The notes under the pieces were generated by a model. The model saw only the letters and a list, made by a program, of their open reading frames with translations, was not told the origin of the DNA and ran no database searches. 64,000 nt of DNA from Candidatus Moraniibacteriota bacterium. GTDB lineage: Bacteria > Patescibacteriota > Minisyncoccia > Moranbacterales > UBA2206. Position numbers and translations under genes: made by a program. Positions 1,366-27,335 of the stretch are shown here, one piece after another (within the stretch, counting starts at the first letter, position 1; every line of letters begins with the position of its first letter). The stretch spans positions 8,594-72,593 of the forward strand of contig JBAQNU010000004.1 of assembly GCA_049304095.1 (NCBI GenBank), read 5' to 3'.

Positions 1366-2337
1366 ATGAAAAAAGCGTTGATTACCGGGATACTTGGCCA
1401 AGATGGACCATATTTAGCTAAACTACTCCTGGAAAAAGATTATGAGGTCTATGGACTAATGCGGAGATATTCTTGTCCAAATTTTAGCAATACCGATTAT
1501 CTAGGTGTTACGGAAAAAATCAATTTTGTTTCCGGAGACTTGACGGATGAAGCTTCGATTATGCATATCATAAAAACCATCCGCCCGGACGAGGTATATA
1601 ATTTGGCGGCGCAATCTTTTGTCGGTTCTTCCTGGGAACAGTCAAAACTTACCACGGAAGTGAACGCACTTGGCGTGCTCTATTTGCTAAATGCAATCAA
1701 ATTTTTCTCACCCACCACAAGATTCTATCAAGCCTCTACTAGCGAGATGTTCGGCAACAGCCACGAAGAAGGCTTACAAAAAGAAGAAACTCCCTTTCAC
1801 CCCAGAAGTCCCTATGCGATAGCCAAGCTCTATGCCTATTGGATGACCATCAATTTCAAAGAAAGTTATGGCATGCATTGTTCTAATGGAATCCTATTTA
1901 ATCATGAGTCCCCTATCCGCGGAATAGAGTTTGTTACTCGCAAAATTTCTGATGGTGTAGTCAGAATAAAGTTGGGATTGGCAAATGAAATTCGCTTGGG
2001 CAATTTGGACAGTAAGCGAGATTGGGGTTTTGCCGGAGACTATGTTGAAGCAATGTGGCTGATGCTTCAGCAGGAAAAACCAGACAATTATATCGTCTCC
2101 ACCGGCGAAACACATTCGATCAGAGATTTTTTGGATCTCGCTTTCAATTGCGTGGGAATAACCGATTGGAAAGACTATGTCAAAATTGATCCCCGTTTCA
2201 AACGACCTGCTGAACTTTTTTCTCTGCACGGAACCAACAAAAAAGCGCAGGAAGTTTTGGGCTGGACACCAAAAGTGAAACTTGAAGAATTAGTAAAGAT
2301 GATGATGGACGCTGATCTAAAAAGATTGGAAAAATAA
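1366..2337 (+). CDS. gmd: GDP-mannose 4,6-dehydratase
   Basis: N-terminus ITGILGQDGPYLAKLLLEKDYEVYG (Rossmann GxxGxxG). Contains the SDR YxxxK motif (YAIAKLYAYW) and the NHESPIRG motif typical of Gmd. Confidence 0.9.
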   Translation: MKKALITGILGQDGPYLAKLLLEKDYEVYGLMRRYSCPNFSNTDYLGVTEKINFVSGDLTDEASIMHIIKTIRPDEVYNLAAQSFVGSSWEQSKLTTEVNALGVLYLLNAIKFFSPTTRFYQASTSEMFGNSHEEGLQKEETPFHPRSPYAIAKLYAYWMTINFKESYGMHCSNGILFNHESPIRGIEFVTRKISDGVVRIKLGLANEIRLGNLDSKRDWGFAGDYVEAMWLMLQQEKPDNYIVSTGETHSIRDFLDLAFNCVGITDWKDYVKIDPRFKRPAELFSLHGTNKKAQEVLGWTPKVKLEELVKMMMDADLKRLEK

Positions 2338-2338
2338 A

Positions 2339-3475
2339 ATGAAAAAGATTCTATTTTTATTCCCCCATTTTCTCTTGCCCGGTGGCGCGGCCAATTCCAC
2401 TGTTCGTTTTGCACGTGCGCTGAATGAAAAAGGTTATATTACTGAAATAATCTGCGCCGGAGCTAATCCTAATTTTCTCCAAGAAAACAAGGACTTGAAA
2501 TTTACAGTTCTTAATATCCCTGATAGTGGCACATTTTCCTATTGGGTTCTATTTCTTTTTTGGCAGATCAAGATCAACCATAAACTTTCACAATATCCTG
2601 ATTATATTTTCTTTCCCCAAGTGCTCCCTTCGAATTGGTGGGTCTGGTTTTTCAAACTGACACACAAAAATCAAAAGATTGTCTGGAATTGCAATGAACC
2701 AAGCGCCTTCATTCATTCAAAAACATGGATAAAAGCCATAAAAAATCCCCTGATGCGCGCCGGAGCCATTATTTTCAATCCTATTCTAAAAACAACGGAC
2801 ATCTATCTGGAAAAACAAAATAATTTTGTTTTTTGTAACAGTCGCTATTCCGCGTCTGATTATGAAAAAAGTTACCATAAAAAAGCTGACGCAGTTATTT
2901 ATCCGCCATCATACATCAAAACAGTTCCTTTGTCGGGAAATAAGCAAAACTATATTTTCACTGTCAGTCGCCTGTCGAAGTTCAAAAATGTCAATTTACT
3001 CGTCGAAGCATTTGCCAAAATAAGTGAAAAATTTCCAAACTACACATTGCTCATTGCTGGTGATGGAGAAGAAAAAGTAGCTCTACAAAAATTAGCAACT
3101 GACAAAAACCTCACCTCGCGCATCAAACTATTAGGCAAAGTTTCTGACGAAGATCTTTCACAGCTATACGCAAATGCCAGAGTGACGACGTTGTGCTCGA
3201 AAAATGAACCATTTGGACTTGTTCCGGTTGAATCGATGATGTATGGCACGCCAGTCATCGCCCACAAAAGTGGTGGGCCACTGGAAACAGTGCTTGACAC
3301 CAAAACTGGCTTTCTATATGCAACTACTGACGAGCTGGCGCTGTGCTTGGAGAAAATGCTAACATTGAATGATGAGAAATATGCTGAAATGCAAAAAGTG
3401 GCACAAATACAAGCAAAGGAATTTGATATCGCAAAATCAATGGAAAAATTAGAGGACGTTTTTAAAAAATTCTAG
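2339..3475 (+). CDS. GT4 (group 1) glycosyltransferase
   Basis: C-terminal EPFGLVPVESMMYGTPVIA motif (GT-B retaining family). One-nucleotide gap after gmd. Confidence 0.85.
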   Translation: MKKILFLFPHFLLPGGAANSTVRFARALNEKGYITEIICAGANPNFLQENKDLKFTVLNIPDSGTFSYWVLFLFWQIKINHKLSQYPDYIFFPQVLPSNWWVWFFKLTHKNQKIVWNCNEPSAFIHSKTWIKAIKNPLMRAGAIIFNPILKTTDIYLEKQNNFVFCNSRYSASDYEKSYHKKADAVIYPPSYIKTVPLSGNKQNYIFTVSRLSKFKNVNLLVEAFAKISEKFPNYTLLIAGDGEEKVALQKLATDKNLTSRIKLLGKVSDEDLSQLYANARVTTLCSKNEPFGLVPVESMMYGTPVIAHKSGGPLETVLDTKTGFLYATTDELALCLEKMLTLNDEKYAEMQKVAQIQAKEFDIAKSMEKLEDVFKKF

Positions 3476-3476
3476 T

Positions 3477-4286
3477 ATGAAACTATCCATAGTTACACCA
3501 AGTTATAACCAGGGCAAGTTTATCAAAAAAACATTCGAAAGTATTCTTGATCAAGCTATTGATTTTGAATTGGAATATATTTTGGTTGACGCTGTTTCCA
3601 CTGATGAAACGACAAAGATTATCGAGGAATTTATTCCCAAATTCAAGGCTAAAAATATTGAATTTATTTATATTTGCGAGAAAGACACAGGACAATCAAA
3701 CGCCATTAATAAAGGCTGGAAACTTGCAACGGGAGACATTCTAGCCTATCTTAATTCAGATGATTTCTATGAGCCAAACGTACTTCAAAAAATAATGAAC
3801 TATTTTATTCTCAACCCAAAAATTAAATGGGCTTATGGTGGGTGGAATTTTGTCAATAAAAATGGATTGCTGTATAAAAAAGTTCAGCCAACCATTTTTA
3901 AAAAACAAAGACTACTTGATTACTGCAATATCGGCCAGCCGAGTTGTTTTTTCAGAAAAGAATTATTAGAAAAATTTGGAATGCTTAATGAGGAATTGCA
4001 CCTAGCCATGGACTATGACCTATGGCTCAGATTTTCCACAAAATATCCTGCTGGAATTATGAGTTTTATCATTTCCAATATGCGTTATTATCCTGATGCA
4101 AAAAGTGGAGCAAAAACAATGGAGCATTTAAAAGAGGCTTTTGTACTATGTAAAAATTATTCGAAAATATTTTCTTGGCAGCGCTTTCGACAAATATTCT
4201 TTTTTATGCGTGGCTTTATGGTTGTTATTTCAAAAAAAGATATCACTAGGAGAGTGAACTCAATTAAGTCCATAAATCAAACTTAA
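3477..4286 (+). CDS. GT2 glycosyltransferase
   Basis: N-terminus LSIVTPSYNQGKFI plus a DAVSTDET(T) and NSDD (DxD-like) pattern of GT-A fold GT2 enzymes. Confidence 0.8.
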   Translation: MKLSIVTPSYNQGKFIKKTFESILDQAIDFELEYILVDAVSTDETTKIIEEFIPKFKAKNIEFIYICEKDTGQSNAINKGWKLATGDILAYLNSDDFYEPNVLQKIMNYFILNPKIKWAYGGWNFVNKNGLLYKKVQPTIFKKQRLLDYCNIGQPSCFFRKELLEKFGMLNEELHLAMDYDLWLRFSTKYPAGIMSFIISNMRYYPDAKSGAKTMEHLKEAFVLCKNYSKIFSWQRFRQIFFFMRGFMVVISKKDITRRVNSIKSINQT

Positions 4287-6430: not shown

Positions 6431-7378
6431 TTATTTTAGTTTAATTTCGCAATATATGCAATCTCCCGATCTTCTATCGAAAAATTCATAAATTCTTAAT
6501 AAAATGGAGTAAAGGAGTTGTTTAGCCGCAGAAAAATCAAACTTAAAAGCCTCATTTGGCTTCCCTTTTTCGGATATTTTAAAATTTTTCTGAAGCAGAT
6601 ACCAGCCAGTTGGGGTGCAGGTAGAAAATTCAGTCATGACGAAACCGTACTTTTCGCACAAACTGGCTATGCCTTTTTTACTCAACAATGTTACGTGATA
6701 GGGCGTGTGCCAATTTATCCACCTAGCGCCATATTTTTTTCTGTATCGAGAATCAAAATTCGGCGTAGAAAAAATAATTCGGCCATTATTTTTTAAGCGT
6801 TTCTTGCAATTTTCAAAAAAATCATTTACATCATACTGATGTTCCAATGATTGCGCGGAAACAATATAGTCAAATTTATCCTTAATATCATTTAATTTGA
6901 TTGTTCCGTGAATCGCATTCAAATTATCTTTTTTTAATTTAGCAATCAAAGCTGCGTCAACCTCCAATCCGGTCCAATCTAAATTCTTGGCAGATGCGAC
7001 TTTTTTTAGTTTAGGAACGTAACCAGGACCTACTTCCAATACTTTTGAATTATCTTTAACATACTTAAGCAAGAACCTATTGCCCGCAAGCCATCCAACA
7101 ACCATTTCATCCAAGCCCATTTTCTCTAAAATCAATCCCAATTTATTTGGTCCAGCAGTTGGTTTATCCTTTTTTCCATAATACTTTCCATAAAGTTCGG
7201 CCAAGCTATCTTCTTGAATTTTATTCCCCAAGAAGGCCACATTACAATCATTGCAATAATAATATTCAAACAAATCTGGCTGTCCGAACCTGTCATCATA
7301 TTTCTGGATGAAAAACTCACTCTCAATTGATCCGCAAACTGGGCATTTTTTGTCTGAAACTTGCTTAAATTCTTCCAT
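6431..7378 (-). CDS. class I SAM-dependent methyltransferase with N-terminal zinc ribbon
   Basis: CPVCGS...CNDCN ribbon, then VLEVGPGYV (motif I) and a Rossmann methyltransferase core. Such genes are common in O-antigen clusters. Confidence 0.8.
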   Translation of the reverse strand: MEEFKQVSDKKCPVCGSIESEFFIQKYDDRFGQPDLFEYYYCNDCNVAFLGNKIQEDSLAELYGKYYGKKDKPTAGPNKLGLILEKMGLDEMVVGWLAGNRFLLKYVKDNSKVLEVGPGYVPKLKKVASAKNLDWTGLEVDAALIAKLKKDNLNAIHGTIKLNDIKDKFDYIVSAQSLEHQYDVNDFFENCKKRLKNNGRIIFSTPNFDSRYRKKYGARWINWHTPYHVTLLSKKGIASLCEKYGFVMTEFSTCTPTGWYLLQKNFKISEKGKPNEAFKFDFSAAKQLLYSILLRIYEFFDRRSGDCIYCEIKLK

Positions 7379-7399: not shown

Positions 7400-8701
7400 T
7401 TATTTATTAGTCTTCGTGTAGCTCAATCTAATTATAAGTAAATTGAGAATAACGTAGAGACAGTAAGCCCACACGAAATAATTCAATGTTTTTGCGTCAG
7501 CCATAATCAAGACACTATAGATAGTAAAAAACAAAAGAGGGAGCCAGTAGGATATTTTTTTTAACCGCATATAGCTCTTTTCTATTGATGAAACTATGCT
7601 CCTATATAAACTGGTTATAATTTGCAAAAAGGCCGCAAAAGAGAAAATCAAGACATGGAGATTGTTAAATTGATATTTTGCGCCAAAAGCACTCATTATC
7701 GCGAAAGAAAACAGAAACATAAGCGCTGTTCCAGGAACCAGACTCAAAATCAACAACCTATCGACCTTTTTTATTATCACATCCTTATCTTCTATTTGAT
7801 TTATGGTGGGAGAAAAAACATTATCAAGTATTAAAATAATTTGACCAACGAAACCTGTCGTAGAAACAAGATAAGCGCTATAAATTCCAAGCTGCTCCAA
7901 ACCCAACGCTTTTCCAATAAAAATCCTGTCCATTGATACCATAACTATCCCTATTACCGTCAACACAATGGTTGCCCTGGAATATTTTATAATATTTTTG
8001 AATTTTTGCTTATCCCAACCAACCAACTGTCCGCTTATTTTTACAAAATAGATTATGCCTAGGCATAAATATCCCGCAATTAGAGAAAATATGTAATATT
8101 GATAGTTGCTTAATTTCAAAACAAAGAAAAAAAGCAAGAAAAAAAGCAAAATGATGATTCCTTCAATAATCTTCACTACCGATTGAAACTTAAAAAAATT
8201 AAAGCTCTTAATAAAACTGTCCAATAGAGATTTTAGATTTATTATAATTGCAAAAATGGTTGCCAACAAAAAAATATTTTTATCTACATGAAACAAGCCT
8301 GCTAGCTGAGAAGCGAAAAAAAGGAAAAATATGGATACACAAAAACTCGAACATAAAACAATGAAAAAAGAATTGGAAAGATACTGCCGCTTGTCTTCCA
8401 TTTCCTTGCTTGATGAAATATATTTTATCGAAGTTATATCCAATCCCAAAAGAATAAAAATAGATAGTATATTGACAATAATAAGCACTAAATTATATTT
8501 TCCATAACCAACTGGACCCAAAATTCTTCCCGCCAAAACATTTATTCCAAAAAGCATTAGCCCATTAAAAAATATTCCCAAAAATGACCAGGAAAGGTGC
8601 CCCAGGAAATCTCGCATAGTCGGACTCATCTCATGACCGAAGACCCACAAATGCACTGCTTCCAAAATTTCAAATATTTTATTTTTTGCGTGAAATAACA
8701 T
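7400..8701 (-). CDS. Wzx-like oligosaccharide flippase (MOP superfamily)
   Basis: 433 aa with about 12 TM helices and the typical polysaccharide-biosynthesis-protein layout. Sits in a GT operon. Confidence 0.7.
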   Translation of the reverse strand: MLFHAKNKIFEILEAVHLWVFGHEMSPTMRDFLGHLSWSFLGIFFNGLMLFGINVLAGRILGPVGYGKYNLVLIIVNILSIFILLGLDITSIKYISSSKEMEDKRQYLSNSFFIVLCSSFCVSIFFLFFASQLAGLFHVDKNIFLLATIFAIIINLKSLLDSFIKSFNFFKFQSVVKIIEGIIILLFFLLFFFVLKLSNYQYYIFSLIAGYLCLGIIYFVKISGQLVGWDKQKFKNIIKYSRATIVLTVIGIVMVSMDRIFIGKALGLEQLGIYSAYLVSTTGFVGQIILILDNVFSPTINQIEDKDVIIKKVDRLLILSLVPGTALMFLFSFAIMSAFGAKYQFNNLHVLIFSFAAFLQIITSLYRSIVSSIEKSYMRLKKISYWLPLLFFTIYSVLIMADAKTLNYFVWAYCLYVILNLLIIRLSYTKTNK

Positions 8702-10016: not shown

Positions 10017-10748
10017 TTACCTTATTATTGGCGGTTTAAGTTTTAGTCGAAGAAAAAAATAGTGCAATAATACCTCAAGTGAATTTTTAATTGCTTTTTT
10101 GGAAACACTCGGCGATGGAGCCCTGTAGTGGATTGGGATCTCCGCGTAGCGACTATCGCGAAGCAAATAACGTAATTCCGTTTGATAAAAATGAGCTTTA
10201 GAAAGTAATCTATATGGGATAAATTTTTCAACTATGCCAGCATGAAATCCTTGAAAACCAGACGTCATATCATACATTTTAGTTCCCAATAGCATATTAG
10301 CCAGAATAGTGCCAGCCCTAGATAGGAATGTTCTTTTCCACGTGGAATCACAAATAGATCCTCCATTCATAAAGCAGCTACCAAAGGCACACTCATTTCC
10401 TTCATTTAGCACTCGCAGAAACATTGGAAGCGCTCTTGGATCATGCGACAGACCAGCATCCATCTCTATTATAATTGAATGGTTATTTTTTAATGCTTCC
10501 CTATAGCCTCGCATATACGCATCAACCACGTTCTTGTTTTCAGGTGCCCAAATCGTCACGAAACGTTCATCTGATGCCGACAAGTTATTACACAATTCCA
10601 GCGTATTGTCTTTTGACACTTCATCGACAACAAAATAAACCTTGCCACATTTGAGCATATTTAAAACTTCACTCAAAGAAGCAATAAAAAGATTGAATTC
10701 TTTTTGTTCATTTGCCATCGGCACTACCACCGCAAAATCAACCATCAT
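10017..10748 (-). CDS. GT2 polyprenyl-phosphate sugar synthase (DPM1/GtrB-like)
   Basis: VVVPMANE start and DAGLSHD (DxD). Soluble, short GT2. Overlaps the upstream GT-C gene by 4 nt. Confidence 0.75.
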   Translation of the reverse strand: MMVDFAVVVPMANEQKEFNLFIASLSEVLNMLKCGKVYFVVDEVSKDNTLELCNNLSASDERFVTIWAPENKNVVDAYMRGYREALKNNHSIIIEMDAGLSHDPRALPMFLRVLNEGNECAFGSCFMNGGSICDSTWKRTFLSRAGTILANMLLGTKMYDMTSGFQGFHAGIVEKFIPYRLLSKAHFYQTELRYLLRDSRYAEIPIHYRAPSPSVSKKAIKNSLEVLLHYFFLRLKLKPPIIR

Positions 10749-12331
10749 TCCGTTTTATTTTTATAATAAATAACGTACCCATCAAAACTTTTTCGCACAA
10801 AAGCATCACTTCCCAACAACTCCTTATCGGGAAAATTACTGAGAAAAGTTTTTTCCATTTTAGGGAAAAGGATTATAACATTAAATGTTTTATCCGTATT
10901 ATTTTCATATCTGTTTTTTCCATAAGCACTTCCAAACCCCATTATCAACTGCTTTTCAAAGTCAGAATATGATGCTTTCTTGTATACTGGATATACATAT
11001 AAACTCTTTCTGTCTAATTCATATCTAATATAATAATTGATTGAATCTGTCCATTCAGTATTTGCAGCCGGTTCGCCAACAATTAAAAAATTATCTTCCC
11101 TGGAAGTTTCCGACTTGATGATACTAGATATATTTCCGATATTCCTTCCCTCTTGCGCGAAATCTTGTGCGCCGCTAAAAGTGCTCCGCGCGTCGCCCAT
11201 GATGAAAAGCGCTGTCAAAATAAGCATGCCTGACCATATAATTTTATTGCCTTTTTTAATTTGTCCAAACAAATAAACAACCGCTAACGCATACGCTAGG
11301 GCGGCTGGCACCAAGTATCTTTCGAAAAATCCTGATTTTGCATAAAGAATAACTTGCGGTATTAAAATGGCCAAAAAAAGAGCTACTGGAAATATAAATT
11401 CCTTTAACACTTCTACTTTTTCGTTACGCGCCTTTATCCTCCAGATGAAAACGACTATCAGGACTACCTGCATAAAAACAATAATACTCGCGTGAACATT
11501 TTTTGCCAATTGCAAAAATGCCATAACATAGGATTTTAGATCAAAGCCATAGACTCCTGCATATCCCGTTCCGCCAGTCCCAATAAAAATTTTTATATAC
11601 AGTATGCACCCCGCAAAAACAACCGAAAGTGCGCCGATGCTCACGAGATTTTTTTTAATTGCGTCTCTCAATGAAAACTTATTTTTAAGCATTGAAAGAT
11701 AGACTGAAAACAAAATAAGTGCTGGCAAAAGAAGCAAGAAGCTTTCCTTCGACAGCGCCATAAAAGTTGCCATTGCGACAAACAACACCTTAAATGCTTT
11801 TTCTCTTTTTCCTGCAGTAATCTTAATTAACCCAAGAAAAAACAACGTCACGGACATCAAAAACATACCCAGTGTTTCGTTGGGTCCCAGTCGCCACCAG
11901 ATTGACGCCTGAGGACCAACAAGCACCAGAAAGGGAAATAGGCTCGATTCAATAAGAGAAAAACCCAGTAATTGCAAAAAACAAAAAAGGAAAAAAGAGG
12001 TGAAAATCGCAAGGCAAGCAGTATATACCGACCAAGTAGTAAAATTAGTGCTAAATATTTTTGTCTCTATCACTCGATGGATAAAATATAAAGGGCGAAA
12101 GCGATGAGTAGAAATCTGATCATTTTTCATCCATTTTCCTGCCACGGCAATGGTGCTTTCCGTTTTCAAATCGTTGTTTATCCGCACAATCTCATGATCA
12201 TCGGTCAGGTGATATCCAGAAGTGAGTGTGCCGGAAAAGCCCAAAAACGCCAGCCAGAAAATGGCAAAAAAAAGGAACGCCGCGTAGTAGTTTTTGTGTT
12301 TGATTTCCTTTAATTTCTTAATAATTTCCAT
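10745..12331 (-). CDS. GT-C fold membrane glycosyltransferase candidate (ArnT/PMT-like)
   Basis: First TM is followed by HLTDDHEIV (a DD/DE loop motif of GT-C enzymes). Has more than 10 TM helices and a C-terminal soluble domain. Confidence 0.6.
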   Translation of the reverse strand: MEIIKKLKEIKHKNYYAAFLFFAIFWLAFLGFSGTLTSGYHLTDDHEIVRINNDLKTESTIAVAGKWMKNDQISTHRFRPLYFIHRVIETKIFSTNFTTWSVYTACLAIFTSFFLFCFLQLLGFSLIESSLFPFLVLVGPQASIWWRLGPNETLGMFLMSVTLFFLGLIKITAGKREKAFKVLFVAMATFMALSKESFLLLLPALILFSVYLSMLKNKFSLRDAIKKNLVSIGALSVVFAGCILYIKIFIGTGGTGYAGVYGFDLKSYVMAFLQLAKNVHASIIVFMQVVLIVVFIWRIKARNEKVEVLKEFIFPVALFLAILIPQVILYAKSGFFERYLVPAALAYALAVVYLFGQIKKGNKIIWSGMLILTALFIMGDARSTFSGAQDFAQEGRNIGNISSIIKSETSREDNFLIVGEPAANTEWTDSINYYIRYELDRKSLYVYPVYKKASYSDFEKQLIMGFGSAYGKNRYENNTDKTFNVIILFPKMEKTFLSNFPDKELLGSDAFVRKSFDGYVIYYKNKTE

Positions 12332-12344
12332 AACTTTATAATCC

Positions 12345-12674
12345 TTATTTTAAAATCAAAATAATCGATGCCAGGCCCAAAAGAATTCCTAGGGATTGTT
12401 TCAATGTGATAGTCTCTTTGAAAAACAGCGCGCCGGTGGCGACCACAATCAGCATCACGCCAATGGTCATTATGGGACTGATTTTGCTCAAATCAAAAAT
12501 TTTGAGCACATAGGCATAGAGGCCAAAAGACACGACATAGAATAGTCCCCCGAGCACGAAAAACAAGAAAAAATCAAACTCTTTGAAAAAGGCGAACTGA
12601 CTGGATTTTTTGAGCATAATTTGCGCCAGGGCGCTGGTGATGATGCCGAGTGCGACAAGAAGATAGGCAAGCAT
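12345..12674 (-). CDS. 4-TM SMR/EamA-like small transporter (ArnE/ArnF- or GtrA-type lipid-linked sugar flippase candidate)
   Basis: 109 aa with four hydrophobic helices. Sandwiched between GT-C-like and GT2 genes. Confidence 0.55.
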   Translation of the reverse strand: MLAYLLVALGIITSALAQIMLKKSSQFAFFKEFDFFLFFVLGGLFYVVSFGLYAYVLKIFDLSKISPIMTIGVMLIVVATGALFFKETITLKQSLGILLGLASIILILK

Positions 12675-12692
12675 ATTTTTTATTTGAAAAAA

Positions 12693-13964
12693 TTATTTAA
12701 TTGTAATTGAATCTACTCCATAGAAGCGACTGGCGCCCAAGTGATTGTGGCGAGAAAGCGTTTCGCCGAGCAATTTTTCATTTTTAACCCTGCCAATTCG
12801 TTCCACCATAATATCTTTTTTATTATCCGCTTTTTGCGTTGAAATTGAGTTTTCTCTTTGAGCATATTCTTTTGCCAGCGCGTCAGACTCAACGAGCGTC
12901 TTTTGAACAGAGAAAGCTAGGACGGGGAAAATCGCAAGCACCAGCGCGTATTTTATTTTCCAAAAACTCGTCTGCAACAAAAATCGACTGGCAAAAATGA
13001 TGAGAAAAATACTGCTGAAAAAATAGGCGCGAGGTGGAAAATAGGGAAAAAAGATGCTCAAGGCGTCAAGCGCAATTGCCGTGACTAGCGCAATTTGCAT
13101 TACCCGGTCAATAACGATTCCCCTCTTTCTAAATAATAACCTATCTAAGAAATAGACGCAAAAAATAGCCCCTGCAATAATCCACAGCCAAGATTGATGT
13201 TCCGGCGCGCCGGGAATAAGTTTGGTCAGGTTATGAGAAATCGTGCCTGCGATTTTTTCAGTTTGCCCGTTAGTGCCAAATTTTATAAAATTACCCGGGG
13301 CAAGCAGTTGCACAGATAGTCCCCCGAAAACTCCCACGACACCAGAAATACTCCAATGCAAAAACAATTGTTTTTGTTTCCAAAAAACCAGACTGCCCAA
13401 AAAACTTAAAAACAAAATAATCGGCGCCAAAAGTTCGTGCGAATTGCCTGCGAAAAATCCAAGCAAAAACATGAGGCAAATCCCTCCGAGAGATTTTTTC
13501 AAAAATAGATCTTGCTTTTCAATGAGCAGTTTTTTATAGGGCCACAAAAACATAAGACCTAAAACAGCCATCCAAAGATAGACGACCGATCCGCACATCC
13601 AAAACAGCGTCTGATTGGGAGCGGGCAGGCAAAACCACAGCAAACTGAAAATTCCCAACAGTCCGACTGGTTTTAGTTTTTTTTCTTCGCTGGAGAAAAA
13701 ATATATCGCAACACCCAAAAGCACAAACATCAAAGCGTTGAAAATAGCAAAAATAGGCTTACCCCAAAGCACAAAAAGTTCGATGAGAAAATTAGCCACA
13801 CTGCGACCATTGAGGCCAAAATAGAAAGTGGGCAGTGACGCAAGTACGTCCGAAAAATGCTCGACTCTTTTTTCTCCGTAGGCAAAATAGAACGCCCAAT
13901 CATCTGACCAAATTGGCGTTCGTTTGTTGAGGAGATAAAATATTACAAAAACAGCAACAAGCAT
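12693..13964 (-). CDS. GT-C-like polytopic membrane protein
   Basis: SDDWAFYFAY motif after the first TM. The track ORF extends to 14093, but an internal ATG at 13964 avoids a 90-nt overlap with the upstream GT2. Confidence 0.55.
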   Translation of the reverse strand: MLVAVFVIFYLLNKRTPIWSDDWAFYFAYGEKRVEHFSDVLASLPTFYFGLNGRSVANFLIELFVLWGKPIFAIFNALMFVLLGVAIYFFSSEEKKLKPVGLLGIFSLLWFCLPAPNQTLFWMCGSVVYLWMAVLGLMFLWPYKKLLIEKQDLFLKKSLGGICLMFLLGFFAGNSHELLAPIILFLSFLGSLVFWKQKQLFLHWSISGVVGVFGGLSVQLLAPGNFIKFGTNGQTEKIAGTISHNLTKLIPGAPEHQSWLWIIAGAIFCVYFLDRLLFRKRGIVIDRVMQIALVTAIALDALSIFFPYFPPRAYFFSSIFLIIFASRFLLQTSFWKIKYALVLAIFPVLAFSVQKTLVESDALAKEYAQRENSISTQKADNKKDIMVERIGRVKNEKLLGETLSRHNHLGASRFYGVDSITIK

Positions 13965-14004
13965 CAGAAAAGAAACAAGTGCGTCGCTTTTTTTAAAAAA
14001 AGTT

Positions 14005-14937
14005 TTAATCACAATTCTTTTCCTTAATAATATAGTTCGGCCGGCCCTTGGCTTGCATAAACAGCTTTCCAATATATTCCCCCATAATACCAAAAGTAAT
14101 GAGTTGTATGCCAGACAAAAAGAGCACGCTCACGAGCACTGAAGTCCAACCGGAAAGCGCGCTGTCGGTGAAAATTTTGACATAGAGCGCATAGATTGCA
14201 TAGAGAAAAGCCAAAAAAGCAATTACAAAGCCAACTACTGTGGCCAAGCGAAGTGGTTTTACGCTAAAAGACGTGATGCCGGTGATGGCAAAGGAGATCA
14301 TTTTTTTCAAAGAATATTTGGTTTTGCCGGCAAAGCGCTCTTCCGGCGCATATTCAATGGCAAATTGGTCAAAACCAAGCCACGCCACAAGACCGCGCAA
14401 GAAAAAAGTATTTTCCTCAATTTTCAAAATAATCTCCACAATTTGGCGGTCGAGCAAACGAAAATCGGCCGCACCACGCGGAATGTTCACATCCGACAGT
14501 TTTGCCATGAGAGCATAGAACAATTTAGCAGTGCCTTTTTTGAAAAAAGACAGTTTTTGCGAATCTTGACGCACAGTATAGACGATTTTGAAACCTTCTT
14601 GCCATTTTTCTACTAACTTCGGAATTAGTTCCGGCGGGTGTTGCAAATCGCCGTCCATGGAAACCACGCAGTCTCCGCTGGCATAAGCGAGCCCGGCGCG
14701 CAAAGCATTTTGATGGCCGAAATTGCGCGAAAAAGACAGATATTTGATTTTTTCATTTTCCACGCTCAATTTTTTGATAAGCGAAAGCGTCTTGTCTTTT
14801 GAGCCATCATCAACAAAAATCACTTCATAATTTTCTATTGTCGCAAGCGCTTTTGTCAGGCGCCCATTTAATTCCAAAATATTTGGCTCTTCATTGAAAA
14901 TAGGCACGACAACGGATAGTTTGAAATTGTTGTTCAT
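14005..14937 (-). CDS. GT2 polyprenyl-phosphate glycosyltransferase (GtrB/ArnC-like) with C-terminal TM pair
   Basis: LSVVVPIFNEE, VFVDDGSKD and DGDLQHP motifs, plus two C-terminal TM helices typical of GtrB. Confidence 0.85.
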   Translation of the reverse strand: MNNNFKLSVVVPIFNEEPNILELNGRLTKALATIENYEVIFVDDGSKDKTLSLIKKLSVENEKIKYLSFSRNFGHQNALRAGLAYASGDCVVSMDGDLQHPPELIPKLVEKWQEGFKIVYTVRQDSQKLSFFKKGTAKLFYALMAKLSDVNIPRGAADFRLLDRQIVEIILKIEENTFFLRGLVAWLGFDQFAIEYAPEERFAGKTKYSLKKMISFAITGITSFSVKPLRLATVVGFVIAFLAFLYAIYALYVKIFTDSALSGWTSVLVSVLFLSGIQLITFGIMGEYIGKLFMQAKGRPNYIIKEKNCD

Positions 14938-14943
14938 TTTATT

Positions 14944-15120
14944 TAGGAGCTACGCATTTCCCCTCACAGCCATATTGACTAAAAAAATGACTCGAATGCT
15001 CTTTTTTCTTTTCAAAACTTTCCCTCATTCGACGGCATCCGGTGGAAAGTTTTGAAGAAAAAAGGCATTCTCAAACAGGATTTTTTTAGCCAATACGGCT
15101 GCTTCGGGCAAGTGCGTAAG
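14944..15120 (+). repeat. MITE-like structured intergenic repeat, copy 1
   Basis: About 175 bp. Outer imperfect inverted repeat cagccatattgactaaaaaaa / tttttttagccaatacggctg. Inner 13-bp hairpin ttcaaaactttcc-(17 nt)-ggaaagttttgaa. More than 90 percent identical to copies at 24988, 27165, 44568 and 47317. Confidence 0.9.
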
Positions 15121-15143
15121 ATACGTTATTATGTTAGATTATG

Positions 15144-16913
15144 TTATTGCATTTTTTCAAAATAGAATCCGGCGCCCAAATTTTGACTGTCAAACGCTTT
15201 GACTTCCGGCGAATAATAGGGCGTGCAGGGCAAGGGCAGGCTGCGACACTCATTATCATTTTTCGGTCGATAGACTGTGCTAATTTTGCCGTCTCTCGTC
15301 TTCATCTCTTTTTCATAAAACTGATTTGAATCGGTAAATGTGACATAGAAAACATTTTTAGGTTTTTTATTGATTCTTTCAATCGGACCCGCAATGATGA
15401 AAAGTTCGAAAGAAATAATCAGCACAAAGAAAATAACAAATCTAAGTGCATATTTATTCAGTACCCTATCTGCAATAGTAGCATAAATATCAACTAAAAA
15501 CAAACTGAAAATGGCGAGGCCGGAAGCAAAAAACATTATGAAAAACAAAAGGCTAAAGCGAATGTCTGGAGCGGAAAAAAACCAATATGCTAGATTCAAA
15601 ATCTGTACCAAGAACAACCAATAATACTTTTTTTGTTTTTTAAAGCTCAAAAAAAGATTAACCACCCAGACAATCAGCCCCGCAATAAACGGCATGGCGA
15701 CCAAATTTAAAAATAGGCGATCCGCCAAATTTCTTTTTAGCCAAGGCAAAAGCCAATAGAAAAGACCATTGTCCGCTGAGCTCATAAAATTTTCTCCTGG
15801 TAAGCGTGCCCAATAACGAATGGAATTATAGGCACCAAAAATTGCGCCTTCTGAGGCAGTCCAAGGAAAATTCGCGCGCAAAAAAGGCAAAGGAAAAAGC
15901 GGATAACCACTGGTTATTAAATTAGCGATAATGCTACCCAAAAAACCAAGAAATGGCAGAAAAAAAATCTTGCTTAAATTTTTCCAACTTACCAGTTTAT
16001 TCTTGATCAACAAATACAAAGAGAAAATTGCCACCATAAGCACGATTGCAGCAGCGTTTTGTTTCGACAGGTAGGCGGAAATGGAAAGCAAATTGATGGT
16101 AAAAAGAAATTCCAAAAGGGTACTTTTTTCATCAACCTCTCCACTCAAAAAATATTTCATTATTTCATTGATAATGATTGCGCCAAGAAACATCGGCAAA
16201 AGATCATAATATAGATTTGGAGCACTATTATAGGTGCCAAAATAATAAACAATGCTGGCCACAAGCAGTGGCACGACATAAGCAATCCGCCAAATTGTCA
16301 AACGCTTCTTCCCTTTTTCTGCAAGCATCAAAAAAACTTCCCAAATAAAATAGGCGCCAAAAGCAAAAAAGAATAGCCCTGGCATCACGAATGGGCTTTC
16401 ATTATCCCAAAGAGCATTATCGAACACAGCAGACAACTGCAAATAGCTTGAAAAACTTGCGAGACGAAAATGCAAATTAGCCAGTCCCGGCACCAACGGA
16501 TAGTGATTGAGCCAAGAAACGATGCCCATGTGATAGCCGGTCGTGTCCCCCTCTTTGGGAAATTTTTGTCCGCCAAGTGATGTAGATATGGTCAAAAGCA
16601 AAAGACTAATTACGAAAACAAGCAAAAATATCTGCTTGCGAGAAAAATCAATCGCCAAAAGCTTTGTTTTTTTTCTTGAAATAAAAAAAAGACTCAAAAG
16701 TCCAAAAAGCAAAACAAATAAAAGCACTGGTGTGTCAAATTTTCGAAAAAAAGACAAATAGCTAAGCGGAATGATTAAGGCGCTATAGCCCAAAAAAAAT
16801 AGCAGAACGGGATTTTCAACAACTCTTTTGTGCTTAAAAATTTTTCTGATTAGTTTTCCCCAACCAAAAAGCACGAGAAAAAACAAAATTATCGAACAAA
16901 AAATAAATAGCAT
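15144..16913 (-). CDS. polytopic membrane protein (589 aa), GT-C-like candidate
   Basis: More than 12 TM helices. Lies 4 nt downstream of a GtrB/GtrA fusion gene. Confidence 0.55.
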   Translation of the reverse strand: MLFIFCSIILFFLVLFGWGKLIRKIFKHKRVVENPVLLFFLGYSALIIPLSYLSFFRKFDTPVLLFVLLFGLLSLFFISRKKTKLLAIDFSRKQIFLLVFVISLLLLTISTSLGGQKFPKEGDTTGYHMGIVSWLNHYPLVPGLANLHFRLASFSSYLQLSAVFDNALWDNESPFVMPGLFFFAFGAYFIWEVFLMLAEKGKKRLTIWRIAYVVPLLVASIVYYFGTYNSAPNLYYDLLPMFLGAIIINEIMKYFLSGEVDEKSTLLEFLFTINLLSISAYLSKQNAAAIVLMVAIFSLYLLIKNKLVSWKNLSKIFFLPFLGFLGSIIANLITSGYPLFPLPFLRANFPWTASEGAIFGAYNSIRYWARLPGENFMSSADNGLFYWLLPWLKRNLADRLFLNLVAMPFIAGLIVWVVNLFLSFKKQKKYYWLFLVQILNLAYWFFSAPDIRFSLLFFIMFFASGLAIFSLFLVDIYATIADRVLNKYALRFVIFFVLIISFELFIIAGPIERINKKPKNVFYVTFTDSNQFYEKEMKTRDGKISTVYRPKNDNECRSLPLPCTPYYSPEVKAFDSQNLGAGFYFEKMQ

Positions 16914-16917
16914 TTTT

Positions 16918-18051
16918 TTAGTCCGCTTTGCGCTTATAAATTATCTCCTCCAATTTTTTCTTGAAAACCAATTTGTCATAACCGAAAAAATTAAGCACGA
17001 TGGCTAGGGCGACTCCGATGAGGGTGTTGGTCATATAGTCCACTCCGGACGACGCCAGGATAGGGAAAAGAATTAGTCTTGCTAGAAATGAAATTCCGGT
17101 GACAAGATGAAAATAGAAAAAAACTTTGAGAAAATTGCGCGTGGTTTCATATTTGTAGCGCCAAGTGATGAATGAGTGCAAAAATAGTCCCACCAGAACG
17201 CTCACTTCGATGCTTATAATATTAGCCACTTCCAAAAGACCACGCGTGTTGAAATTGCCATATTGCACTAATGCGTAGATGGCCAAAATTTGCGACAAGG
17301 CCACAAACACGCCATTGATGCCATATTTCACAAAATGGGCAAAGCCCGAAGTGTTATATTTAAAAATACACCAAAGAGCCCGCACACCGTCTTTCCAGCC
17401 AATATGCTTGCCTTCGTTATAGGTCCGGCCGTAATAGGAAATACCCACTTCATAGACCCGCACGTTTTTGGTGCGCGACAATTCCCCCACTTTGGCGGTG
17501 ATTTCCGGTTCAAAGCCAAACCGATTTTCTTCGATGGCAATTTGATCAAGCACGCTTTTGCGAAAAACCTTATAACAAGTTTCCATGTCAGTCAGATTCA
17601 AATCGGAAAAAACATTGGAAAGCAGTGTGAGAAATTTGTTCATCGTGGTGTGCCAGAAATAGAGAATGCGGTGCGATTGTCCGCCGATAAAACGCGAGCC
17701 AAAAACCACGTCAGCCTTTTCTTCCAAGATTGGCTTCAAAAGTTTGGGATATTCATTAGGGTCATATTCCAAATCAGCGTCTTGAATGATTACCAAGTCG
17801 CCAGTCGCTTTGCGAAATCCGGTGTTGAGCGCTCCGCCTTTGCCCTTGTTTTTGGCATGATAGAAAACGCGAATTTCCGGATCATTGATGTTTTTCAAAA
17901 TTTCACGCGTGCCATCCTTGGAACAGTCGTCCACCAAAATGAGCTCGCGCTCAGTGATTTTTTCCGGCAAAGTAACACTTTTGACAATTCCCACAATTTG
18001 GAGAATCGTCTTTTTTTCGTTGTAGATTGGGATGACGATGGATAGTTTCAT
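16918..18051 (-). CDS. GT2 polyprenyl-phosphate glycosyltransferase fused to a C-terminal GtrA-like membrane domain
   Basis: LSIVIPIYNE, LVDDCSKDGT and QDADLEYDP motifs, then four C-terminal TM helices (GtrA family pattern). Start placed at the internal MKLSIV. Confidence 0.8.
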   Translation of the reverse strand: MKLSIVIPIYNEKKTILQIVGIVKSVTLPEKITERELILVDDCSKDGTREILKNINDPEIRVFYHAKNKGKGGALNTGFRKATGDLVIIQDADLEYDPNEYPKLLKPILEEKADVVFGSRFIGGQSHRILYFWHTTMNKFLTLLSNVFSDLNLTDMETCYKVFRKSVLDQIAIEENRFGFEPEITAKVGELSRTKNVRVYEVGISYYGRTYNEGKHIGWKDGVRALWCIFKYNTSGFAHFVKYGINGVFVALSQILAIYALVQYGNFNTRGLLEVANIISIEVSVLVGLFLHSFITWRYKYETTRNFLKVFFYFHLVTGISFLARLILFPILASSGVDYMTNTLIGVALAIVLNFFGYDKLVFKKKLEEIIYKRKAD

Positions 18052-18070: not shown

Positions 18071-18466
18071 TTAGAGATTTGCTTTTTCCTTGATTTTTCC
18101 GGCAATCAGATCAGCTATCTGCCAATACTGGACCAGTCTCGCATATAGCTCGTTGGCCATTTTTTCAGAATAGGTATGCACGGACAAGTTTCGATCATCG
18201 GTCATTGCCATACACTGCTCAATATTTTCCTCAGATAAATCTAAAATCACACGAATTTCCCGAAAGCAGGCCTTGGGAGAATTGCATTCAATTCCCTCAT
18301 ATTCCTTCAAATACATCTTCACCGTTTTCCAAAGCAATTCAAGGGAAAATTCATAGCGTTGAATTGTCGCATCACGATTGAGATCAGAAAATGGAGCATC
18401 CAATGCTTTTTTCCAAGCAATGAGTGCTTGCTCTAAATCAGAAAATTTTTCTTTTAGATAATCCAT
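18071..18466 (-). CDS. HEPN-domain nucleotidyltransferase substrate-binding protein (HI0074 family) toxin
   Basis: Typical HI0074-like sequence, 131 aa. Overlaps the partner MNT gene by 13 nt. Confidence 0.8.
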   Translation of the reverse strand: MDYLKEKFSDLEQALIAWKKALDAPFSDLNRDATIQRYEFSLELLWKTVKMYLKEYEGIECNSPKACFREIRVILDLSEENIEQCMAMTDDRNLSVHTYSEKMANELYARLVQYWQIADLIAGKIKEKANL

Positions 18467-18741
18467 ATTTTTGGTCCACCCATAACGCGCTCGCGAAATG
18501 GATCTTTAGTGTTATTGATATTAATTACATCGAATCTATAGGGCAAAGATGATTCGTCAAGGGCGTCTTTAATTTTGGAGATTGTCTTGTCTATTTCCTT
18601 TCTTTCACTGACAATCGCCAAGTCCACATCGTTGAATTTCGTGCCTTCCACGCTCGAGCCAAAAACAAAAACCCGCTCACCTTTTTCGAGTTGATGACTA
18701 AAAAGCTCTTTGATTTTGGCAATATATTTTTCCTCAAGCAT
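18454..18741 (-). CDS. minimal nucleotidyltransferase (MNT) antitoxin partner
   Basis: GSSVEGTKFNDVDLAIV, a polymerase-beta-type NTase motif (GS...DxD). Confidence 0.8.
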   Translation of the reverse strand: MLEEKYIAKIKELFSHQLEKGERVFVFGSSVEGTKFNDVDLAIVSERKEIDKTISKIKDALDESSLPYRFDVININNTKDPFRERVMGGPKIWII

Positions 18742-21991: not shown

Positions 21992-23323
21992 TTATTTCTT
22001 AATGAAGTATCCTCCCGACTTAGAGCTTCCAATAAATTCTACAAAACCATCTTCCTTTAATTTCTTGATCCACCTTTCAATTGTTTTTTGCGGAGCAATT
22101 CCGGCGCTCATCATTTGGTTGGTTCTTTTGCCTGGATTATTGGCAATGAAGTTTTTCAATTTATTTGCTCCCTCATTTGCTCCCTCATTTGCTCCCTCAT
22201 TTGCTCCCTCATTTTGTTTCCTTTTCTCAAAAGTAATCACAAAAGCACCGACTTTTTCTGAGAACTCGGGCAGTTTATTGCCGTTTTTTTCACACTCTTC
22301 AATTATTCTTTGAAAACCTGTGCCCCAATTTTCAACTAGCTCGATTTGATGAAAAATTTCCACCAGCTTTTTGTTTCTGGGAATAGATCTGTTTTCTGTG
22401 AGAATGCTTTTTGTATTGATTTCTTTCGGCAGAAGTCCCGGGCTCCAAATTTCCAGCGAATTGTCAAAAATCCTAATTTGAATATTTCCCGAATCATTAT
22501 AGTCCCGATGCATGAGAGCATTGATAACAGCTTCTCGGAGCGCCAAAAGCGGATAGTCCCAAATTTCATCTCGTTTCGGCTTTCCCGTGATGACAAATTC
22601 CCTGTTAATATGCCTTTTGATGAAATCCATAATCTGTTCAACGGCCTCGATGATGTTGCCATTAAACTCTTTTTCGTCTAAAAATTTAACCACGCTCTGG
22701 CCTTTGAATCTCGCGGCTCTCACAGTGGCGTTATAGATTTCAGTATTATTTTTCACAAAACAAAGATAACCGGCATTAGTAACTTTATTTTTAGTTGCCA
22801 GTCCAGTTTTTTTCAAAAAATCAATTGCGGATGTTGTCTTGAGCTTATAATATTCCTTGTTTACTTTTTCAATCAGTTTGTCATCAAATTCAATTGTCTT
22901 GAGTTCTTTGTCTTGATACATTTTGTCGAAATCCGACAAAGCATATCTTTTGATCAGCTCCCGCACTTCCGTTTGGGACATTTTCTGATTGGTTTTGCCT
23001 ACTCTGATATAGGCCCTCTCAAAGGCAAAGACTGGCTTGTTGTCAGACTCGGAAACTTCAATCTCCACGATTTCACCAAGACCAAATGTTTTCACATTGA
23101 TCGATGGATATAGAATCGGATCGGTATGATTTTTTACTTTATTAGCAAAATCTTCGATTGTTTTTTTCCCTAGCTGAAGCTCGTTGGCTGTGCCATCATC
23201 TTTCATGCCAATAATAACCTTGCCACCTTTTTTGTTGGCAAAAGCGCAAAGACTAACAATTGCCTCTTTCCATTCGGAAAAAGAGCTCTTAAGTTCTAAT
23301 TTTTCAGATTCTTTTAGTTGCAT
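21992..23323 (-). CDS. AlbA_2 (Schlafen-like) + HATPase_c_4 + C-terminal wHTH putative transcriptional regulator/ATPase
   Basis: N-terminal LELKSSF...ANKKGGKVIIGMKDDG AlbA_2 signature. The central ATPase-like region is followed by a (NEGA)x4 repeat and a winged HTH. Confidence 0.8.
   Translation of the reverse strand: MQLKESEKLELKSSFSEWKEAIVSLCAFANKKGGKVIIGMKDDGTANELQLGKKTIEDFANKVKNHTDPILYPSINVKTFGLGEIVEIEVSESDNKPVFAFERAYIRVGKTNQKMSQTEVRELIKRYALSDFDKMYQDKELKTIEFDDKLIEKVNKEYYKLKTTSAIDFLKKTGLATKNKVTNAGYLCFVKNNTEIYNATVRAARFKGQSVVKFLDEKEFNGNIIEAVEQIMDFIKRHINREFVITGKPKRDEIWDYPLLALREAVINALMHRDYNDSGNIQIRIFDNSLEIWSPGLLPKEINTKSILTENRSIPRNKKLVEIFHQIELVENWGTGFQRIIEECEKNGNKLPEFSEKVGAFVITFEKRKQNEGANEGANEGANEGANKLKNFIANNPGKRTNQMMSAGIAPQKTIERWIKKLKEDGFVEFIGSSKSGGYFIKK
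22163..22212. repeat. perfect 12-bp tandem repeat x4 (tttgctccctca) inside CDS, encoding (NEGA)4
   Basis: Read directly from the sequence. In-frame, in the linker between the ATPase and HTH domains. Confidence 0.9.
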
Positions 23324-24987: not shown

Positions 24988-25152
24988 CTCATGCATTTAC
25001 ACTAGCCGGTATTTTTCTAAAAAATAACTCGAACGCTCTTTTTTCTTTTCAAAACTTTCCCTCATTCGACGGCATCCGGTGGAAAGTTTTGAAGAAAAAA
25101 GGCATTCTCAGACAAGATTTTTTAGAAAAATACCGGCTGTGAAATGAAATAC
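24988..25152 (+). repeat. MITE-like structured intergenic repeat, copy 2
   Basis: Same core as copy 1. The outer arms differ but remain perfectly complementary (agccggtatttttctaaaaaa / ttttttagaaaaataccggct). Confidence 0.9.
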
Positions 25153-27164: not shown

Positions 27165-27335
27165 TCGGTGCTTTTTTCCTCGCAGCCGCATTGACTAAAA
27201 AAATAACTCGAACGCTCTTTTTTCTTTTCAAAACTTTCCCTCCCTCGACGGCATCCGGTGGAAAGTTTTGAAGAAAAAAGGCATTCTCAAACAAGATTTT
27301 TTTAGCCAATACGGCTGACTCGGGAAAATGCGTAA
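27165..27335 (+). repeat. MITE-like structured intergenic repeat, copy 3
   Basis: Same element. The inner-loop variant is ctccctcgacgg. Confidence 0.9.

Follow-up and report, generated by a model that had tools for sequence, protein, structure and literature searches.

Genes of the locus

The window analysed here is a 64-kb stretch of contig JBAQNU010000004.1 from a Candidatus Moraniibacteriota metagenome-assembled genome (MAG), which places the host in the Parcubacteria group of the Patescibacteria, or candidate phyla radiation (CPR). A second contig, JBAQRM010000004.1 (GCA_049295935.1), is near-identical to it, with one single-nucleotide polymorphism over 21.6 kb. The subject of this study is a minus-strand cluster (10017-18051) encoding three family 2 glycosyltransferases (GT2), a small membrane protein and several large polytopic proteins (Table 1). 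An earlier reading of the letters alone, hereafter the original prediction, had seen in it three one-to-one modules for extracytoplasmic glycosylation. The open reading frames (ORFs) that it named in this cluster were recovered on the minus strand with the same boundaries, except that the start of the DUF6056 gene was shifted to 14012.

We consider it likely that this is a surface-glycan biosynthesis locus with two extracytoplasmic three-component modules, here called I and II. At the level of sequence, the evidence supports a module I formed by the 377-aa DPMS-like GT2, with its GtrA-type transmembrane (TM) domain, and the 589-aa DUF8201/LIC_10190 protein. It likewise supports a module II formed by the 310-aa GtrB-like GT2, the DUF6056 protein, the 109-aa SMR/EamA-like four-helix protein and the 528-aa protein, the DUF6056 and 528-aa proteins being members of the GT-C glycosyltransferase class, so that one synthase would serve two transferases. 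For each of the three GT2s, the best relatives in the PDB were all polyprenyl-phosphate sugar synthases, in agreement with the GtrB/DPM1-like assignment proposed earlier. Between 18051 and 4295, eleven genes run in the same direction, with gaps of no more than 21 nt or with overlaps between them; the one exception is a gap of 206 nt. The single operon of the original prediction is thus borne out by gene order and spacing, but not across this gap, which lies between the two modules and contains a hairpin.

Table 1. Features of the 64-kb window discussed in the text, with window coordinates
Feature	Coordinates	Strand	Basis
DPMS-like GT2 with fused four-helix GtrA/DPMS TM domain, 377 aa (module I)	16918..18051	-	Pfam, PDB alignment, TM prediction
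DUF8201/LIC_10190 polytopic membrane protein, 589 aa, candidate transferase (module I)	15144..16913	-	NCBIfam, PF26626
Intergenic palindromic repeat between modules I and II	14938..15143	.	RNA fold
GtrB-like polyprenyl-phosphate hexose synthase, 310 aa (module II)	14005..14937	-	PDB, Pfam, NCBIfam, TM prediction
DUF6056 GtrC-type GT-C, SDDW motif, 439 aa (module II)	12693..14012	-	Pfam PF19528
EamA/SMR-like four-TM protein, 109 aa, candidate flippase (module II)	12345..12674	-	Pfam EamA, TM prediction
GT-C-fold glycosyltransferase (predicted activity), TDDHE motif, 528 aa (module II)	10745..12331	-	AlphaFold and Foldseek
DPM1/DPMS-like soluble GT2, 243 aa	10017..10748	-	Pfam, PDB
Polytopic membrane protein, 428 aa	8712..9998	-	no Pfam match
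Wzx-type repeat-unit flippase	7400..8701	-	Polysacc_synt 7.2e-22, Polysacc_synt_3 4.9e-14 (Pfam)
S-adenosylmethionine-dependent methyltransferase	6431..7378	-	Methyltransf_23 7.7e-15 (Pfam)
Protein of 707 aa, ~16 TM helices	4295..6418	-	rare family
GDP-mannose 4,6-dehydratase (Gmd), GT4 and GT2	1366..4286	+	GDP_Man_Dehyd 8e-123, Glycos_transf_1 2e-40, Glycos_transf_2 9.5e-26 (Pfam)
ORF cut by the window edge	13-1359
PMT_2-family GT-C, 495 aa, QDESRHY after the first TM helix	23495..24982	+	Pfam
PMT_2-like candidate GT-C, 493 aa, ~10 TM helices	35688..37169	+	sub-threshold Pfam
Second envelope-glycan cluster: MurJ, 859-aa DUF4012 protein, three GT4, Wzz-like protein, Bac_transf phosphoglycosyl transferase with CoA_binding_3	37323-47293

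A GtrB-like synthase with two GT-C proteins (module II)

The 310-aa GT2 (Glycos_transf_2, 3.4e-35) aligned end to end with Synechocystis GtrB sll0501 (2.2e-82) and with ArnC (9e-49) in the PDB, and it carries C-terminal TM helices at residues 231-249 and 268-286, as is typical of the class. At the level of sequence, it has the two hallmarks of a GtrB, a full-length match and two C-terminal helices. Its best NCBIfam model was PgfS (312 bits), below the equivalog cut-off of 500, and it scored 191.6 bits against the ArnC model, for which the cut-off is 529.

The next gene encodes a member of DUF6056 (Pfam, 6.8e-84), a family (PF19528) that has been renamed GT_STM0557_N after a Salmonella GtrC. 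Its start more likely lies at the GTG at 14012, behind AAGGA, which gives an overlap of 8 nt with the upstream GT2 gene and agrees with the public call of 439 aa. The protein resembled the GtrC of Salmonella phage epsilon34 by tblastn (2e-7) and, like a GtrC, it is a polytopic GT-C protein encoded beside a GtrB-like GT2. A literature search for DUF6056 returned nothing relevant.

The 109-aa protein has four TM helices and matched EamA above the cut-off (34.3 against 28.2 bits), which upholds its earlier description as a standalone SMR/EamA-like protein; its matches to SMR, EbrA and ArnF were weak.

The 528-aa protein had no Pfam or NCBIfam match and is annotated as hypothetical at NCBI. A search of 5.8 billion proteins returned about 70 relatives, in whose alignment D44 is invariant and D45 (at least 90%), R79 and P80 are nearly so; in the protein itself, the first TM helix (13-33) is followed by TDDHE. 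The AlphaFold model was of high quality (predicted local distance difference test score, pLDDT, 93.9; predicted template-modelling score, pTM, 0.93), and the first 24 Foldseek matches in the PDB were all GT-C proteins, including STT3, ArnT, DPY19, ALG12, AftA, PglB, ALG9, Pmt4 and ALG3, with a best E value of 2e-6 (STT3) and a TM score of up to 0.51 (ArnT). By profile comparison with hhalign, DUF6056 and the 528-aa family were related (98.3%, E 1.5e-14), with their DD motifs in the same columns. PMT_2 was matched by 5 of 56 members of the 528-aa family and was not matched by the 528-aa protein; the family profile retrieved nothing meaningful among PDB sequences, and a phage search with the protein gave no match. 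We regard its assignment to GT-C as firm, and its glycosyltransferase activity is predicted from this model and these matches. The motifs TDDHEIV in the 528-aa protein, SDDWAF in the DUF6056 protein and QDESRHY in the 495-aa PMT_2 protein elsewhere in the window were found directly after the first TM helix, as had been anticipated, and an acidic motif in this position is characteristic of GT-C_A.

The linkage of these genes was assessed in 60 loci from metagenomes in which a member of the 528-aa family is encoded, with a score of at least 150 bits taken to define a GtrB-like GT2. Such a GT2 lay no more than 3 kb away in 31 of these loci; it shared the strand of the 528-aa gene in 30 of them and came within 150 nt of it in 21. 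An SMR-like gene and a DUF6056 gene were found in 10 and 5 loci, respectively. The GtrB-like, DUF6056, SMR and 528-aa genes recurred together in L005, L012, L013, L015, L030 and L045. In L005, a relative with 52% identity, these four genes are the only ones of the two modules, and they are followed by Gmd and Wzx. The closer relative L004 (69-79% identical) has the fused GT2-GtrA gene and DUF8201, then the GtrB-like, SMR-like and 528-aa GT-C genes, with no DUF6056. Further downstream in L004 lie the 243-aa GT2, GtrA, STELLO-like and 428-aa genes, and then Wzx and the remainder of the locus. Differences of this kind, with modules present in one close relative and missing from another, are familiar, by analogy, from variable surface-glycan loci.

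A DPMS-like synthase next to a DUF8201 protein (module I)

The 377-aa protein combines Glycos_transf_2 (8.5e-38) and GtrA_DPMS_TM (4.5e-10) domains, and has four C-terminal TM helices at 244-362. Its residues 14-371 aligned with residues 18-362 of the Pyrococcus furiosus dolichol-phosphate mannose (DPM) synthase (5mlz; E 1.2e-25), the membrane domain included, and its motif QDADLEYDP is a canonical DXD of the DAD type. The layout of a type III DPM synthase, with a DXD-bearing GT2 domain, interface helices and a four-helix TM domain on one polypeptide, is thus present in full. The original prediction was right about the fused GtrA-like domain. Since the complete layout of the archaeal type III enzyme is reproduced, the fused domain is not necessarily a flippase, and we rejected it as proof of a flippase fused to a GT2, because the whole protein has the architecture of the P. 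furiosus enzyme (PfDPMS).

NCBI annotates this region of the source MAG with nothing more than a 137-aa "GtrA family protein" (16918-17331), and the GT2 half is not called. The 377-aa ORF is uninterrupted, and records of a 377-aa product exist for the same cluster and for the L004 ortholog. The 137-aa call is therefore likely to be an annotation error.

The adjacent 589-aa protein belongs to the NCBIfam family LIC_10190 (188.9 bits, cut-off 100), and PF26626 is recorded for a protein identical to it. A literature search for DUF8201/LIC_10190 yielded nothing relevant, and no function has been assigned to the family. In the Foldseek search of the PDB with its AlphaFold model (pLDDT 87), ranks 1-9 were all GT-C proteins, Pmt4, PglB and STT3 among them, at weak values (E 0.017-0.3; TM score about 0.35 or lower), and transporters appeared from rank 10. 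The GT-C fold expected of the large membrane proteins was thus recovered by structure prediction for the 528-aa protein, and the GT-C matches of this one were weak. An aspartate, D123 in the motif DTxxYH, is invariant in DUF8201. It follows the fourth TM helix and not the first, so that this protein is no example of the acidic motif after the first helix for which it had been cited. By the positive-inside rule, the loop carrying D123 is predicted to face outward. We suggest that the DUF8201 protein is probably, if not demonstrably, a GT-C-like transferase.

A scan of genomes, made with a reduced alignment, gave 79 DUF8201 loci, of which 27 (~34%) had a GT2 of the DPMS type (14) or the GtrB type (13) within 3 kb, adjacent in 17; these synthase-like genes were usually adjacent and co-directional. 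The DUF8201 loci came from many phyla or groups, namely Spirochaetota, Synergistota, Chloroflexota, Lachnospiraceae, Bacteroidota, Planctomycetota and CPR. The fused GT2-GtrA gene adjoins DUF8201 in L004 and lies directly upstream of it in L011 (26% identical).

The 243-aa GT2 and the intergenic repeat

The third GT2 of the cluster (Glycos_transf_2, 1.4e-13) is without a TM helix. It gave seven PDB matches, every one a polyprenyl-phosphate glycosyltransferase, with PfDPMS the best (3.8e-14), and it is also similar to ArnC and GtrB. Its motif is EMDAGLSHDP, and the DAG is kept in the only ortholog found (81% identity). In L004, GtrA and STELLO-like genes stand behind the ortholog; they are absent from the locus in the window. 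The 243-aa GT2 may be a paralog that has lost activity, may serve as a regulatory subunit, or may catalyse in an unusual way. A pairing with the 528-aa GT-C was rejected despite the overlap of 4 nt between the two genes: the 243-aa type occurred in none of the 60 loci of the 528-aa family, and L005 has the GT-C without it. This GT2 is a lineage-specific, atypical DPM1-like extra without a demonstrable partner. On the synteny of the synthases in relatives, we therefore recognise two supported units, not three, and the triplicated one-to-one modules of the original prediction give way to two modules, one of them with two GT-C proteins, plus a partnerless atypical GT2.

The 206-nt gap between modules I and II contains a hairpin of ~160 nt (-81.4 kcal/mol, z -9.4). 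It is one of five copies of a ~170-nt palindromic repeat in the 64 kb, all of them intergenic; the others are at ~24990-25130, 27170-27310, 44580-44720 and 47350-47490. A 23-mer core, GGAAAGTTTTGAAAAGAAAAAAG, was exact in all five copies, with 0 expected. Rfam gave only sub-threshold matches of the element to generic hairpins, and in L004 the junction of the two modules is a gap of only 18 nt with no repeat element. The repeat is possibly an element of the miniature inverted-repeat transposable (MITE) or repetitive extragenic palindromic (REP) kind, a (mobile) terminator or an attenuator.

Surrounding polysaccharide genes and other GT-C candidates

Downstream of the modules lie the genes for the 428-aa protein, the Wzx-type flippase, the methyltransferase and the 707-aa protein, and beyond them, on the plus strand, those for Gmd, a GT4 and a GT2. 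The 428-aa protein is treated here as a candidate Wzy/EpsG-like polymerase because it is adjacent to Wzx; EpsG was matched by 1 of 36 members of its family, one UniRef homolog is named as EpsG family, and its N-terminus gave a weak hhalign match to the 528-aa family (37.6%). Outside its own clade, its closest relatives are proteins of Bacteroidota and Deltaproteobacteria, with 45-50% identity. The G+C content of the window is ~0.40 and falls to 0.33-0.34 over 4-10 kb, where the Wzx, methyltransferase, 428-aa and 707-aa genes lie; together with the foreign relatives of the 428-aa protein, this suggests horizontal acquisition of that part.

The 707-aa protein comes from a rare family, with 127 representatives in a set of 1.84 billion proteins; D137, after the fourth TM helix, is invariant in it. 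PMT_2 was matched by 4 of 54 members, at best with 2.2e-5, and not by the 707-aa protein itself. No link to the 528-aa family, DUF8201 or the PMT_2 protein was found with hhalign, and the family profile retrieved nothing meaningful among PDB sequences. We consider this protein a probable PMT_2-like GT-C. Its gene is also the last of the Wzx locus in L004 (11830-13950) and L005 (15502-17559), whose other gene content differs, and L005 lacks the 428-aa candidate polymerase, yet keeps the 707-aa gene. The protein could be the polymerase, a ligase or an oligosaccharyltransferase-like enzyme of the pathway.

Two further candidates are encoded elsewhere in the window. The 495-aa protein scored 30.9 bits for PMT_2 (cut-off 26.1) and 25.3 bits for PMT, and was linked to the 528-aa family by hhalign (93.7%). 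The 493-aa protein reached 21.7 bits for PMT_2 against the same cut-off (E 2.6e-4), and hhalign gave no link to the 528-aa family. The firm GT-C proteins are thus the 528-aa, DUF6056 and 495-aa proteins. At least seven GT-C-like proteins had been counted originally; three of them can be taken as firm and three as probable, but two more, the 428-aa protein and the truncated ORF at 13-1359, are not established as GT-C. With hhalign, the ORF at 13-1359 showed no clear link to the 528-aa family. The second envelope-glycan cluster, with its phosphoglycosyl transferase, probably supplies the initiation step of the repeat-unit pathway.

Several neighbouring genes were of other kinds. Immediately upstream of the glycosylation cluster (18071-18741), a Polbeta/NTP_transf_2 gene (95 aa) overlaps an NTase_sub_bind HEPN-like gene (131 aa), forming a toxin-antitoxin pair of the MNT/HEPN type. 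The interval from the glycan cluster to the PMT_2 gene holds genes for an 836-aa membrane-anchored LCAT/PGAP1-like lipase/acyltransferase (18795-21305) and a 443-aa protein with Schlafen AlbA_2 and HATPase_c_4 domains (21992-23323), a combination typical of defence or regulatory ATPases. At 56793-58475, a SecD protein contains an apparent PpiC/parvulin-type peptidyl-prolyl isomerase domain (Rotamase_3, residues 148-236, 2.1e-22) between SecD_1st and the P1-head of the periplasmic P1 domain; if true, an accessory protein of the translocon and a folding catalyst would be joined in one polypeptide.

Interpretation and alternatives

The two-module reading rests on the homologies described above, on the fold of the 528-aa protein and on the conserved linkage of the genes. 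We infer the enzymatic activities, the sugar, the flipping step and the acceptor from what is established for the Gtr, Arn and DPMS/PMT systems (PMC11127046, PMC8035078). Each synthase would first move a monosaccharide from a nucleotide sugar to polyprenyl phosphate at the cytoplasmic face of the membrane. The lipid-linked sugar would then be flipped, in module II probably by the 109-aa SMR/EamA-like protein, whereas in module I the GtrA-type TM domain of the 377-aa protein may take on this step. At the outer face, GT-C enzymes would transfer the sugar by means of an acidic motif in an external loop. The transferase of module I is likely to be the DUF8201 protein, with its invariant aspartate in a loop predicted to lie outside; in module II, the paralogous DUF6056 and 528-aa proteins would use the Asp-Asp motif of the first external loop, and would probably put the same sugar on two different positions or acceptors. 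The core of the original prediction, with synthesis inside, probable flipping, and transfer outside by a GT-C enzyme, holds by homology. Because the modules are surrounded by genes for Gmd, GT4, GT2, a methyltransferase and Wzx, the likeliest acceptor would be the repeat-unit polysaccharide of this co-located Wzx pathway, to which the candidate polymerase may also belong.

Several observations weigh against this reading. The identity and specificity of the sugars, and the acceptor, are not derivable from the sequence, and PMT_2-like relatives in other systems glycosylate proteins rather than polysaccharides. In module II, there is no GtrA (PF04138) gene, the sole GtrA-type domain being the one fused in the 377-aa protein, and the candidate flippase scored 22.2 bits against the ArnF model, for which the cut-off is 99. 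In module I, the fold likeness of DUF8201 to GT-C is weak (E of at least 0.017, TM score ~0.35), hhalign found no link between DUF8201 and the 528-aa family, DUF6056 or the PMT_2 protein, the profile of the family retrieved nothing meaningful among PDB sequences, and some two thirds of DUF8201 loci have no adjacent synthase-like GT2. The 243-aa GT2 has DAG where other synthases have the metal-binding DAD or DGD, and so lacks the second Asp of DXD. Finally, co-transcription of modules I and II is unproven, because the hairpin element lies between them.

Some of these points would also be expected if only module II were real, with DUF8201 and the 707-aa and 428-aa proteins serving as polymerases, ligases, transporters or structural proteins, and the DPMS-like GT2 supplying its donor elsewhere. 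The lack of a significant sequence or profile link between DUF8201 and GT-C, the Foldseek E values, the many DUF8201 loci without a neighbouring synthase and the EpsG label (a Wzy-type family) on one homolog of the 428-aa protein all fit such an arrangement. However, the nine best fold matches of DUF8201 are all GT-C proteins, its invariant aspartate lies in a predicted external loop, and the share of its loci linked to a synthase compares with a chance adjacency of the order of 1% for a class of gene with a few members per genome, a figure that is a rough estimate and not computed. We therefore consider it unlikely that module II stands alone, and retain module I beside it.

Another view of the locus is protein O-glycosylation, in which secreted or membrane proteins (S-layer, pili, envelope) would receive the lipid-linked sugars at stretches rich in Ser and Thr, in the manner of PgfS/PgfM or of actinobacterial PMT. 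PgfS, the best NCBIfam model of the 310-aa GT2, is part of a system that glycosylates proteins in streptococci (PMC12041528). Both the 528-aa family and the 495-aa protein are related to PMT_2, and PMT_2 genes also occur on their own, away from any polysaccharide operon. The PgfS score is, however, far under the equivalog cut-off, the modules sit inside an operon for a Wzx-type polysaccharide, the DUF6056 protein resembles the GtrC of an O-antigen-converting phage, and no Ser/Thr-rich target gene was identified at the locus. Proteins thus seem rather improbable acceptors, and we prefer the repeat-unit polysaccharide. It is very unlikely that the GT-C proteins act processively outside the membrane to assemble or lengthen a glycan backbone, as in mycobacterial assembly of lipomannan, lipoarabinomannan and arabinan (Mpt, Emb, Aft): six to eight GT-C-like genes in 64 kb, a module II synthase feeding two GT-C proteins, and AftA and EmbB among the fold matches would be in keeping with this, but STT3, ArnT and PMT are matched at least as well as AftA/Emb, the complete Wzx-type route, with its phosphoglycosyl transferase and Wzz-like protein, suffices for a backbone, and relatives gain and lose modules in the way typical of decorations that are optional.

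A broader and more tentative proposal, which we find somewhat doubtful, is that the 528-aa family, for which neither Pfam nor NCBIfam nor the literature has an entry, and DUF8201 are two functionally uncharacterised glycosyltransferase families that would found new GT-C families in CAZy and that, with the 707-aa family, six to eight GT-C proteins would be devoted to glycosylation outside the membrane in 64 kb of a reduced-genome CPR episymbiont. If true, lipid-linked monosaccharide chemistry would be a principal means by which CPR cells vary their surface. To our knowledge, the envelopes of CPR/Patescibacteria are almost unstudied, and a literature search for CPR together with GT-C returned nothing relevant; surface glycans of these bacteria plausibly help to determine how they attach to hosts and how susceptible they are to phages. 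The four-gene unit of module II would suit heterologous reconstitution, and the functional hypothesis gained for DUF8201/LIC_10190 concerns a family spread over many phyla.

Comparison with known systems

The closest parallel to module II is the Gtr system of O-antigen glucosylation (Salmonella, Shigella and temperate phages such as epsilon34 and P22; STM0557-0559), with which it shares a full-length GtrB match, a DUF6056 protein in the Pfam family of the STM0557 GtrC and a Wzx-type pathway alongside. Unlike Gtr, however, module II has an SMR/EamA-like four-helix protein instead of a GtrA gene and two GT-C proteins for one synthase, and it is found in a CPR host without evidence of lipopolysaccharide and in no prophage context.

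The combination of a GT2 synthase of undecaprenyl-phosphate sugar, an SMR/EamA-type flippase and a GT-C protein is also that of the Arn system (ArnC, ArnE/ArnF, ArnT), which adds aminoarabinose to lipid A, and the 528-aa protein has ArnT as one of its closest matches in fold. A CPR bacterium would not be expected to have lipid A. We rejected an assignment to the Arn pathway on the scores given above for the ArnC and ArnF models, both below their cut-offs, and the domain annotation of the genes in the window contained no ArnA-, ArnB- or ArnD-like genes for 4-amino-4-deoxy-L-arabinose (Ara4N).

For the 377-aa protein of module I, the likeness is to the archaeal type III enzyme of P. furiosus, with which it shares the catalytic domain, the interface helices, the four-helix domain and the DAD-type motif. 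It differs in being bacterial, and in being paired with DUF8201 rather than with an oligosaccharyltransferase/PMT pathway.

Several pairs of synthase and GT-C per genome are also known from Gram-positive bacteria, as in Lactococcus (CsdAB/CD/EF and CflA), Listeria (GtlA/GtlB/GtcA), Bacillus subtilis (CsbB/YfhO) and streptococci (GacI/GacL, PgfS/PgfM). These systems decorate wall polysaccharides, teichoic acids or proteins, their flippases are small and may be shared, and strains differ in which modules they have gained or lost (PMC8035078, PMC10821137, PMC12041528). In contrast to them, the GT-C proteins described here are not of the YfhO or GacL types but belong to the 528-aa family, DUF6056 and DUF8201, the modules stand in tandem at a single locus, and the activities are predicted.

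The GT136 pentofuranose systems (Citrobacter youngae ORF12/13/15) offer a precedent for a previously unclassified GT-C in a three-component system at an O-antigen locus. There, the unclassified GT-C founded a new CAZy family, and the system comprises a phosphoribose synthase dependent on phosphoribosyl pyrophosphate (PRPP), a MATE flippase and a GT-C with a carbohydrate-binding module (PMC11127046). Unlike in GT136, the phosphoribose synthase, the MATE flippase and the carbohydrate-binding module are all absent here.

Three-component extracytoplasmic glycosylation is an established mechanism (PMC11127046), and genomes with several such modules have been documented in lactococci, Listeria, Salmonella and mycobacteria (PMC11127046, PMC8035078). 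Beside these precedents, the locus is not the unusually elaborate system that the original prediction took it to be, and the conceptual advance is modest because the mechanism is established and multi-module genomes are already known. What is new in comparison is the CPR host, a conserved four-gene unit in which one synthase is combined with two paralogous GT-C proteins and a protein of the SMR type and not of the GtrA type, a confident GT-C assignment for the unannotated 528-aa family, and a functional hypothesis for DUF8201.

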